Below are positions 901 through 3,383 of a stretch of DNA of 27,048 nt, piece after piece (the stretch's first letter is position 1; each line of letters begins with the position of its first letter). Both the position numbers and the translations under genes were made by a program. The stretch covers positions 1 to 27,048 of the forward strand of contig JACTMV010000308.1 in assembly GCA_014584455.1 (NCBI GenBank), given 5' to 3'. Under the pieces are notes generated by a model. That model was not told the DNA's origin. It worked only from the letters and a program-made list of their open reading frames with translations, and made no database searches. This DNA comes from Pseudomonadota bacterium. Its GTDB lineage: Bacteria > Myxococcota_A > Polyangia > Haliangiales > Haliangiaceae.

Positions 901-1911
901 TCAGGCGGCGCGCTCGTCCAGGTGCCGCCGCACCAGCCGCGCGCACCACGCGATCGCGCCGGTCGCCAGCAGCAAGCAGACGACGAACAGCGGCAGGCCC
1001 TGGGCGCCGTCGAGCGTCGCCCGCCACTCGATGGCGTGGGCGCGATCGACCTCGCGCAGCGCCGCCACCGCGAGGAACAGCGCGACCGCGCCGACGGTGG
1101 CCAGCCGTCGCCCCGCCCGCCCGCGCCCGCCGGCGAGCGCGATCATCCCGGCCGCGGTCACCGCCGCGCCGCTCCCCGCCAGCACCAGCCACGGCGTGGC
1201 CATCGCCGGCAGCTCGCCGGCGCGCCCGCCGACCGTCCCCACCGCCGCCGCCGCCGCCACCGCCAGGCCGGTCAGCCCGAGCCCGCCCAGGCGGCGCAGC
1301 TCGGCGCGTCCCGCCCGCGCCCCGGCCAGCCACGCCGCGCCGGTCGCGAACGCCACCGCCGCCAGCCCCAGCCACAGCGCCAGGCGGACGGCGATCACCG
1401 GGTCGCGGTGGAACACGCGCCCGTCGCGGTAGTGCGCGACCCAGGTCTCGGCGCCGGCCGCGGCCAGGGTGTGCTCCTCGATCCACGACCACGCGACGAA
1501 GAGGAACGCGAGCAGGGCGGCGCCGCTCACCAGCCCCCGCCGCGCCCCCGACCACGCCCGCGCCCGCACGCTCTTGCCCAGGTACAGCAGGTAGAAGCCG
1601 GCGATGAGCGCCGGCACGATCGCCATGAACCGGTGCGACATGAGGAGCGTCGCCGTGTACACGCGGTGCTGGTAGAGGACCTGGATCAGCAGCAGCGGCG
1701 CCACCCCGGCGGTGATCGCCGCGCCGAGTGCGAACGGCAGCCAGTCGCGGGCCGCCGCCGCCACCGGGTCGTCGCCGCCGACGAGCGCCCGCGCCGTCGC
1801 CCACGCCGCCGCGCCCAGCACGAAGCCGACGAGCAGCGCGTGGGCGGCGAAGGTGACCACGAGCAGGAGCACGTAGCCCCCCGGGCCACCGAGCTCGGCG
1901 AACAGGCTCAT
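901..1911 (-). CDS. Polytopic integral membrane protein (336 aa), probable partner subunit of the upstream cytochrome-fusion protein
   Basis: This is the C-terminal 336 codons of track ORF 901..5040, starting MSLFAELGG. It consists of successive Ala/Leu/Val/Gly-rich hydrophobic segments. Its ATG (1909-1911) overlaps the TGA (1908-1910) of the upstream gene as ATGA. The rest of the 1379-aa track ORF is Arg/Gly-rich shadow frame. Confidence 0.7.
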   Translation of the reverse strand: MSLFAELGGPGGYVLLLVVTFAAHALLVGFVLGAAAWATARALVGGDDPVAAAARDWLPFALGAAITAGVAPLLLIQVLYQHRVYTATLLMSHRFMAIVPALIAGFYLLYLGKSVRARAWSGARRGLVSGAALLAFLFVAWSWIEEHTLAAAGAETWVAHYRDGRVFHRDPVIAVRLALWLGLAAVAFATGAAWLAGARAGRAELRRLGGLGLTGLAVAAAAAVGTVGGRAGELPAMATPWLVLAGSGAAVTAAGMIALAGGRGRAGRRLATVGAVALFLAVAALREVDRAHAIEWRATLDGAQGLPLFVVCLLLATGAIAWCARLVRRHLDERAA

Positions 1912-3383
1912 CGCGCACCCCCGCGCCCGCCACCCGTGGCCTCGCCCGGCGGCCGCGGCCGCTCCGGCGCCGGCGCGGTGCCGGCCTCGTCGAGCCAGCG
2001 CCCGATCTGCGCCAGCGCCACCGGGTCGTCGGACACCGGCCAGGCGGCCGGCGCGCCCGCCGCCTCCCAGCGGATGAGCTGGGCCACCGCCTCGACCTCG
2101 GTCGCCGGCCCGGCGAACGGCGGCATGAAGCCCTTGGTCTCCTGCAGGCGCGCGATCGCGATGCGGAGCTGCTCGAGCGACCAGGCGCCGCCGAGGTGGA
2201 CCAGGCCGTTGGCGCCCTTCATCGTGTGGCAGGCCGCGCACTGCAGCCGCACCACGCGCGCGCCGAGGGCGAGCTGCGCCGTCGGGTAGCGCGCGGCGTC
2301 GCGCAGCGGGTACGGGTCCCGCGCCACCGAGCCCTCGGCGCGCAGCCGCGCGACCTCGGCCGGCGCGATGGCGTTGGAGTACAGGACCTGGCGGATCGTG
2401 AACGGCTTGCGCGCGCCCTCGCGCACGAACTCGCCGGCGGCGGTGGCGCCGAACGCCAGCGCCAGCAGGAGCGCCGCGGTCGCGCCGCTCACGTACAGGC
2501 GCCGCCACCAGATCCCGACGAGCGCGTAGGCGCCGATCAGCAGCGACGCCCCGGCGGCCAGGGCCAGGAACATCGACATCGCGACGCTGCCCCCGGTCAG
2601 CCACGCCCGGCTGTCGGCGGGGATCACCGCCACGTACCACAGCCCCAGCGCCGGCATCGCCGCCATCGGCACCAGCAGGCGCGCGGCGCGGGCGAGGAGG
2701 GCGTGGCGCGCGGCGCGGTCCAGGTCCATCGTGTTGATGACGGCGATCGCGGCCAGCGCCCCCAGCGTGCTCGACACCGCGACCCGGTAGAGCAGCGACG
2801 GCCAGAAGCTGGGGTTGAAGAAGCCGGCCCACACGTCGCCGGAGGCCAGCCACGCCCCCGGGGTGAGCTGCCACGACAGGATGCCGTTGATCCAGAACAG
2901 GCTGCCGAACGACGCCAGCGCGTAGGTGGCGAGCAGGCGCAGGCGCACGCCGTCGGGCAGGCGCTCGCCGTAGCGCAGGAACATGTAGCCGGCGACGATC
3001 TCGACCGCGAAGCAGCACCACTCGATCGCCCAGATCCAGTGGAACTCGTCGACCATGAGCCCGATCGTGCGCGGCCCGACCTGGATCGTCGTCAACCACA
3101 TCGCCACGCCGGTCAGGGCGCCGGTGACGAAGCTGACCAGCACCAGGTACTTGAAGAAGCTGTCGAGGAAGCGGCGCGCGTCGGGCACGCCGCGCCCGGC
3201 CAGCCACTGGAAGTACGTCATCAGGAACCCGCCGCCGATCGCGAACTGGGCGAGGAAGACGTGGAGGATGCCGACCGCGCCGATGACCATGCCGCGCATC
3301 GCCGGACCGAAGTCGTTGACCGGGTAGGCGGTCGGCTCCATCCCCGCTGGGATGATGCCACCGCCGGCGCCGGCATGCGTCAT
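1908..3383 (-). CDS. Polytopic membrane protein (possibly cytochrome bd subunit-I-like) fused to a C-terminal mono-heme class I c-type cytochrome domain
   Basis: 491-aa ORF with about 9-10 hydrophobic segments by eye. The C-terminal soluble domain has the heme-binding motif CAACH and a downstream FMPPF Met ligand candidate. The N-terminal part has a TM1 His (GILHVFLAQF) and IWAIEWCCFAVEIV, which resemble CydA TM1 and TM3 motifs. An alternative start is Met15 (3341). Confidence 0.75.
   Translation of the reverse strand: MTHAGAGGGIIPAGMEPTAYPVNDFGPAMRGMVIGAVGILHVFLAQFAIGGGFLMTYFQWLAGRGVPDARRFLDSFFKYLVLVSFVTGALTGVAMWLTTIQVGPRTIGLMVDEFHWIWAIEWCCFAVEIVAGYMFLRYGERLPDGVRLRLLATYALASFGSLFWINGILSWQLTPGAWLASGDVWAGFFNPSFWPSLLYRVAVSSTLGALAAIAVINTMDLDRAARHALLARAARLLVPMAAMPALGLWYVAVIPADSRAWLTGGSVAMSMFLALAAGASLLIGAYALVGIWWRRLYVSGATAALLLALAFGATAAGEFVREGARKPFTIRQVLYSNAIAPAEVARLRAEGSVARDPYPLRDAARYPTAQLALGARVVRLQCAACHTMKGANGLVHLGGAWSLEQLRIAIARLQETKGFMPPFAGPATEVEAVAQLIRWEAAGAPAAWPVSDDPVALAQIGRWLDEAGTAPAPERPRPPGEATGGGRGGAR

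Follow-up and report, generated by a model that had tools for sequence, protein, structure and literature searches.

Two overlapping genes and a CydA-like subunit I

The window considered here is the whole 27,048-nucleotide stretch of contig JACTMV010000308.1 (assembly GCA_014584455.1), from a bacterium which GTDB places in the Haliangiaceae, and it carries on its minus strand two overlapping genes that resemble the subunits of a cytochrome bd-type oxidase. The first of these, the subunit I gene (1908..3383, minus strand), is of the OR-C1a type and specifies a protein of 491 amino acids from its first ATG, in which a CydA-like core of eight transmembrane (TM) helices is followed by a C-terminal cytochrome c domain. 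The second, the subunit II gene (901..1911, minus strand), is of the OR-C1b type and specifies a protein of 336 amino acids with nine predicted helices, a CydA/CydB fold and no heme c motif. The stop codon of the former and the start codon of the latter overlap in the sequence ATGA (1908..1911, minus strand), which suggests that translation of the two subunits is coupled. The third-position GC of the open reading frame (ORF) for subunit I is 0.98, the GC of the window being roughly 68-82%, and the true start of this ORF may be the ATG at 3339-3341, encoding M15, as most homologues begin near this residue. A scan of positions 600-5400 for promoters and terminators returned no promoter-like sites and two terminator-like sites, both of which lie within coding sequence.

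The original prediction concerned subunit I, for which it proposed a divergent relationship to CydA on the strength of short motifs while allowing that the resemblance could be coincidental, and it overlooked both the partner gene at 901-1911 (minus strand) and the published OR-C family. The reservation did not stand. Pfam PF01654 (Cyt_bd_oxida_I) matches residues 38-246 of subunit I with 47.5 bits (gathering score 26.2; E=1.2e-12), and a profile of 61 sequences, each representing a cluster at 50% identity, retrieves the CydA of G. thermodenitrificans from the PDB (5doq_A) with an E-value of 1.7e-19 and with the histidine and both glutamates discussed below in register; the same profile also matches the CydA chains of qOR2, bd-II and bd-I. 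Structural comparison with CydA, which had been suggested as a check alongside profile similarity, gave a concordant result. The AlphaFold2 model of subunit I (predicted local distance difference test, pLDDT, 78; predicted template modelling score, pTM, 0.72) was compared with the PDB by means of Foldseek, and each of the top 19 matches is to a bd oxidase chain, CydA being ranked first and followed by CydB, at a probability of 1.00 and with TM-scores of 0.52-0.68 against the CydA targets. Chance resemblance within a hydrophobic protein would accord with two null results, namely a single-sequence phmmer search of subunit I against the PDB, which returned weak cytochrome c6 matches only and none to CydA, and a narrow 22-sequence subunit I profile, which likewise matched cytochrome c6 and missed CydA. 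It is refuted by the Pfam score above the gathering cut-off, by the broad profile and by fold matches that are exclusively to bd oxidases, and we assign it a negligible probability. The ORF at 1908-3383 (minus strand) encodes a true but divergent CydA homologue.

The residues that form the O2-reducing site of CydA were located in the 491-residue translation, their codon coordinates were verified, and their conservation was counted over 105 full-length cluster representatives, the denominators given being those representatives aligned at the site in question. H41 (3261..3263, minus strand), which lies within GILHVFLAQFAIG, corresponds in the hidden Markov model (HMM) alignment to H19 of E. coli CydA and H21 of the G. 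thermodenitrificans protein, the axial ligand of the active-site heme, and is kept in 101/103 representatives; the CydA-like histidine previously recognised in the first hydrophobic segment was thus correctly identified. E121 and E128 (3000..3023, minus strand), both within IWAIEWCCFAVEIV, are the equivalents of E99 and E107 of E. coli and of E101 and E108 of G. thermodenitrificans, i.e. the glutamates of the proton channel and heme site, and each is retained in 101 of the 105 representatives. Their separation by seven positions, where E. coli has eight, had been remarked upon and is confirmed, yet it is no defect: the pair aligns to G. thermodenitrificans CydA free of gaps, the offset of seven corresponding to six intervening residues, and this spacing is typical of the qOR2/3/4a, OR-C and OR-N families, the extra residue being present only in qOR1, the family of the E. 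coli enzyme (Murali, Gennis & Hemp, 2021; bioRxiv 10.1101/2021.01.16.426971). Further along the putative proton path S161 aligns to E. coli S140 (Ser or Thr in 104/105) and N166 to E. coli N148 (76/105). R147 occupies the position of E. coli H126, which is His in 82/105 representatives and Arg in a clade of Myxococcota and Planctomycetota to which the window belongs. This clade is further marked within residues 112-147 (window ~2943-3050, minus strand), where D112, H115, F135, R137 and R147 are each at least 90% conserved, the corresponding residues in most OR-C members being His or Arg, Val, Tyr, Tyr and His.

A putative last element of the site is located at the periplasmic end of TM8, where the motif EFVREGARKP (residues 318-327; 2403..2432, minus strand) aligns, in an HMM domain that is weak on its own, to the CydA sequence W-x3-E-V/F-G-R-Q-P-W. 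E322 would thereby fall on the position of CydA E445, the ligand of the second high-spin heme, an alignment whose register agrees among three CydA chains; E322 is kept in 98/101 representatives, and P327 in all 101.

The quinol-oxidising region and the fused cytochrome c domain

The membrane domain of subunit I (residues 31-318; 2430..3293, minus strand) comprises eight TM helices according to hydropathy, the helices of the AlphaFold2 model and HMM alignment to TM1-5 of CydA, and its TM1-4 correspond to the four-helix bundle in which CydA reduces O2. The membrane part ends at TM8, and TM9 of the quinol oxidases is absent. Lysine and arginine residues number 14 on the four loops placed on the cytoplasmic side as compared to 3 on the periplasmic segments, from which it is predicted that both termini are outside and that the cytochrome c domain is periplasmic; such a placement agrees with the requirement of covalent heme attachment, and it is the topology on which the original prediction had been made to depend.

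Neither His/Met ligands of heme b558 nor a Q-loop had been found when the sequence was first inspected, and the alignments bear this out. The position of the b558 ligand H186 is taken by R200 (2784..2786, minus strand; KVAHVL aligned with slllRtl), which is Arg in 104/105 representatives, the entry at this position for OR-C1a in Table S6 of Murali, Gennis & Hemp (2021) being 'F183'. No conserved Met was found in TM7 as an equivalent of the second ligand, M393, since M269 is Met in just 15/105 representatives, and subunit I is taken to have no Q-loop because its TM6-TM7 loop is 12 residues long. In place of these elements the protein ends in a class I cytochrome c domain (residues ~366-441; 2061..2288, minus strand) that matches cytochrome c6 and, at threshold, Pfam PF13442 (Cytochrome_CBB3; residues 370-435, 27.6 bits as against a gathering score of 27). 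The CAACH and FMPPF sequences from which such a domain had originally been proposed proved to be well chosen, as CAACH (residues 382-386; 2226-2240, minus strand) supplies the heme c motif, CxxCH being present in 95/95 aligned representatives, and FMPPF supplies the putative axial ligand M420 (2124-2126, minus strand), which is Met in 91/92.

Homologues of subunit I are named 'cytochrome bd ubiquinol oxidase subunit I' in many databases, a designation that would suit a canonical quinol-oxidising bd oxidase to which an accessory heme c domain has been added. We regard such an enzyme as very improbable here, for H186 is replaced by Arg, M393 has no conserved equivalent, the TM6-TM7 loop has 12 residues and TM9 is absent; the features that define the quinol oxidases (qOR1-4a), i.e. 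the b558 ligands, the Q-loop and nine TM helices, are all lacking in subunit I. What the sequence supports is the arrangement put forward in the original prediction, a divergent member of the CydA superfamily in which a covalently fused heme c would replace the quinol-oxidising b558 site.

Subunit II, gene pairing and neighbourhood

Subunit II is called 'hypothetical' by every source that names it, and searches of Pfam and NCBIfam with its sequence gave no match. Its AlphaFold2 model (pLDDT 89.9, pTM 0.89) has nine helices, and hhalign of a broad subunit I alignment against subunit II gave a probability of 84% (E=7e-6) over a region spanning TM1-TM8; a narrow subunit I alignment gave nothing in the same comparison (probability 0.7%), and an HMM of subunit II directly matches TM5-8 of subunit I. 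Conservation was assessed over 155 distinct subunit II sequences, of which 152 are aligned at the sites of interest. In the hhalign alignment H24 of TM1 (1840..1842, minus strand) falls on H41 of subunit I, and hence on CydA H19, and R286-E287 of the REVDR motif at the end of TM8 (R286, E287 and R290; 1042..1056, minus strand) falls on R321-E322, both sites being kept in 151/152 sequences, while the positions of the channel glutamates are hydrophobic. The most likely reading is that subunit II is a paralogue which has diverged very far, has the CydA/CydB fold and acts as the pseudo-symmetric partner of subunit I. It is conceivable, if rather doubtful, that H24 together with R286/E287 would allow subunit II to hold one or more heme sites of its own, instead of its being an inert CydB-like scaffold. 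If this were so, the pair would represent a pseudo-symmetric multi-heme transmembrane device with a chemistry possibly unlike that of the bd oxidases, for example with a further catalytic site or a site at which electrons leave, or with a function other than the reduction of O2.

Subunit II lies directly downstream of subunit I on the same strand in 82/87 loci, and the remaining five contigs stop at or just past subunit I. In addition, three cluster representatives are natural fusions of subunit I, including its heme c domain, to subunit II (P0220, 798 aa; P0301, 807 aa; P0294, 859 aa), and P0192, from the Phycisphaerae, resembles a truncated or read-through version of such a fusion. The pairing, the fusions and the profile relationship together indicate that the functional unit is the gene pair. 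A subunit II that contributed a quinone site or an extra heme could also make of this unit a transmembrane electron conduit or a quinone-linked module, i.e. a cytochrome c:quinone or quinol:cytochrome c oxidoreductase, and not a terminal reductase. We consider this quite improbable, as nothing like a Q-loop or b558 site was found in subunit I, which does conserve the H19 equivalent and the two channel glutamates of the O2-reducing site, and the pair has no linked gene for a partner dehydrogenase or reductase in the window or in three further loci (L005-L007).

A word-indexed search identified 1334 homologues of subunit I at E<1e-5, the best 120 of the 1334 all being at least 64% identical to it, and an exhaustive search of 50% cluster representatives identified 996 clusters at E<1e-3, 237 of them at E<1e-30, the representatives of which carry 1, 2, 3 or about 8 CxxCH motifs. 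Subunit I is 100% identical to a protein encoded on contig CAADGB010000349.1, assigned to 'uncultured delta proteobacterium PRO4', and homologues with an identity of 60% or more, which make up the close clade, come from Myxococcota (Kofleriaceae, Haliangiales and cultured Polyangium species), Planctomycetota, Tectomicrobia and Eiseniibacteriota.

Beyond the pair itself the gene neighbourhood varies among loci. In the window a 514-aa SBBP beta-propeller lipoprotein is encoded at 3429-4973 (minus strand), 45 nt upstream of the oxidase genes and on the same strand; it matches the LipL53 family of NCBIfam at 2.5e-34, which is below the cut-off, and it is not kept beside the operon in other genomes. 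A gene for an M23 peptidase is also found near the pair. In one Myxococcales metagenome-assembled genome (MAG; L005, 10363-12436) the OR-C pair is followed by genes for a LysR-type regulator, an AhpC-TSA protein and a CMD/AhpD-like protein, in a second, related one (L007, 10485-11411) a gene for a LysR-type regulator likewise comes after the pair, and the neighbouring genes of L006 are unrelated. The LysR, AhpC/CMD and SBBP neighbours were rejected as functional evidence, as they are present in some loci only or are not conserved; the link to oxidative stress to which the LysR, AhpC and CMD genes point is possible and unconfirmed.

Such a link would nevertheless fit a different function for the OR-C complex, in which periplasmic cytochrome c feeds the reduction of a small oxidant other than O2, such as H2O2, NO or nitrite, or the detoxification of O2 or reactive oxygen species (ROS). 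The AhpC, CMD/AhpD-like and LysR genes adjoining the L005 operon and the LysR gene adjoining that of L007 would be consistent with detoxification, as would the tie between canonical bd oxidases and ROS defence that is reported in the review literature (PMC8225038), and according to the published tables OR-C is common in strict anaerobes and there often has up to 8 hemes c, octaheme representatives having also been found here. We judge this function unlikely for the pair in the window, given that the neighbourhood is unconserved (an SBBP lipoprotein and an M23 peptidase in the window, unrelated genes in L006) and that the residues of the O2 site and proton channel match those of true oxidases. 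Moreover, the clade of the window has its members among the Myxococcota, cultured Polyangium being one of them, and the Planctomycetota, both of which are mostly aerobic.

Elsewhere in the window, the gene at 9000-11534 (plus strand) specifies an 845-aa protein in which a Vault_3 repeat (PF17795) accompanies the shoulder domain of the Major Vault Protein (MVP; PF11978, E=2.2e-25). The gene at 12633-15089 (plus strand), which lies about 1.1 kb further downstream, specifies an 819-aa protein with vault protein inter-alpha-trypsin (VIT), VWA and proprotein-convertase P domains, and an unannotated minus-strand ORF of 369 aa (11558-12667) sits between the two. By their domain content these represent a predicted bacterial MVP homologue close to a vPARP-like VIT-VWA protein. 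The gene at 5305-7521 (plus strand) encodes a 739-aa protein with HEAT repeats, a C-terminal cyclophilin-type peptidyl-prolyl isomerase domain and a lipoprotein-like N-terminus.

Assignment to OR-C, proposed function and known systems

The cytochrome bd superfamily was divided by Murali, Gennis & Hemp (2021) into qOR, OR-C and OR-N, with OR-C being defined as those members that have lost the quinol site and whose subunit I bears heme c motifs. In their description OR-C1a has 8 TM helices, an extended C-terminal periplasmic heme c part and an adjacent OR-C1b paralogue, and it conserves H19, E99 and E107; many entries of the OR-C1a list are single-heme proteins of about 440-490 aa, many of the OR-C1b list are heme-free 'hypothetical proteins', and 41 phyla are listed for the family, Myxococcota and Planctomycetota among them, with 532 GTDB hits. 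This classification is still in use in the literature of 2026. The gene pair agrees with OR-C1 in each sequence-level feature examined, possessing CxxCH in the absence of a quinol site, 8 TM helices with the C-terminus outside, and an adjacent OR-C1b partner, and the subunit I profile also retrieves, at E~1e-70 to 1e-77, the 8-heme type which the same authors assigned to OR-C1a of the Desulfovibrionia. It is almost certain that the pair belongs to OR-C. Its architecture is that published for OR-C1a/OR-C1b, and it hence represents an already known family, first defined from genomes in 2021.

We propose that the overlapping genes at 1908-3383 and 901-1911 (both minus strand) encode a two-subunit bd-type complex of the OR-C1 kind, to which a periplasmic c-type cytochrome, either soluble or membrane-anchored, and not quinol, would donate electrons at the fused heme c. 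This heme would take over the role of b558 and relay the electrons to two hemes in the TM1-4/TM8 region, for which H41 and E322 are the presumed ligands. There O2 would be reduced to water, the protons coming from the cytoplasm by way of E128, E121 and S161, with N166 also placed in the proton path. The enzyme would accordingly be a non-pumping, electrogenic cytochrome c:O2 oxidoreductase. We consider this function of the gene pair probable; the homology, fold, predicted topology, conserved residues, strict pairing and fusions are results of the analysis, and it is from these that we infer which hemes are bound, what donates the electrons and that O2 accepts them.

Several points weigh against this proposal. 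The window clade has R147, and F135 and R137 where most OR-C members have a Tyr pair, and its proton channel may therefore differ from the canonical one. The alignment of E322 to E445 derives from a second HMM domain that is non-significant when taken alone (i-Evalue 0.6-75), and Table S6 of Murali, Gennis & Hemp (2021) gives no E445 equivalent ('-') for OR-C1a. The OR-C tables of the same authors include strict anaerobes (Desulfovibrio, Thermodesulfovibrio), in which the role of a respiratory oxidase is less obvious. The rest of the window has no genes for cytochrome c, bc1, alternative complex III (ACIII), heme maturation or other respiratory functions, and in the literature searched no OR-C enzyme was found to have been studied biochemically or structurally.

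Should the proposal hold, the window encodes a cytochrome c-fed, copper-free bd-type oxidase in a version that is both widespread and strongly constrained, with about 1000 clusters at 50% identity and, for subunit I, identities of 60% or more between Myxococcota and Planctomycetota. The practical value is modest and consists in the correct annotation of both genes, subunit II being at present 'hypothetical', and in the identification of a set of residues and of cultured hosts, such as Polyangium spp., with which it may be asked whether cytochrome c can drive bd-type chemistry.

Among known systems, CydAB (qOR1-3; PDB 5doq, 6rko, 7ose and 7nkz) shares with the pair the folds of both subunits, the active-site residues of TM1-4 and the two-subunit pseudo-symmetry. 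It differs in that subunit I here lacks the b558 ligands, the Q-loop and TM9, the predicted point of electron entry being a covalent heme c and not quinol, and in that subunit II here is unrecognisable by sequence models. CydAA' of Caldivirga (qOR4a/qOR4b) and OR-N of the Nitrospirota and Nitrospinota offer a parallel for subunit II as a degenerate CydA paralogue which has kept the H19 equivalent and lost the channel glutamates (an 'a/b' pairing), whereas qOR4a retains the quinol site. OR-N is also thought to use cytochrome c in place of quinol, but its proteins have 10-14 TM helices, lack a fused heme c and are usually encoded beside other electron-transfer subunits in an operon. The cbb3- and caa3-type heme-copper oxidases likewise possess a tethered periplasmic class I cytochrome c domain that takes electrons from soluble cytochrome c, and the heme c domain described here matches the Cytochrome_CBB3 family of Pfam; the catalytic core is unrelated, with neither copper nor a heme-copper fold in the present proteins, and the likeness is one of analogy only.

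The closest relationship is to OR-C, with which the pair shares an 8-TM subunit I bearing a C-terminal periplasmic heme c, lacking the quinol site and keeping H19, E99 and E107 with the 6-residue Glu gap, as well as an adjacent divergent CydA-like partner, often 'hypothetical', that is devoid of heme c. The window clade departs from other OR-C members in having one heme c, as compared to up to 8 in the Desulfovibrionia, in having R147 where most have His, in having F135/R137 where those have the Tyr pair, and in H115, which is invariant and specific to the clade. The present alignments also show E322 as a putative E445 equivalent and an Arg at the H186 position, for which Table S6 has '-' and 'F183', and the subunit II model has 9 helices as against the 8 stated by Murali, Gennis & Hemp (2021). 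The putative E445-equivalent motif, the near-invariant Arg at the H186 position and the subunit I-II fusions are slightly new, as are the almost invariant retention of H19 and E445 equivalents by OR-C1b, its nine predicted helices and the signature near the proton channel in the clade of Myxococcota and Planctomycetota. These features refine a known family and do not make the gene pair a new kind of system.

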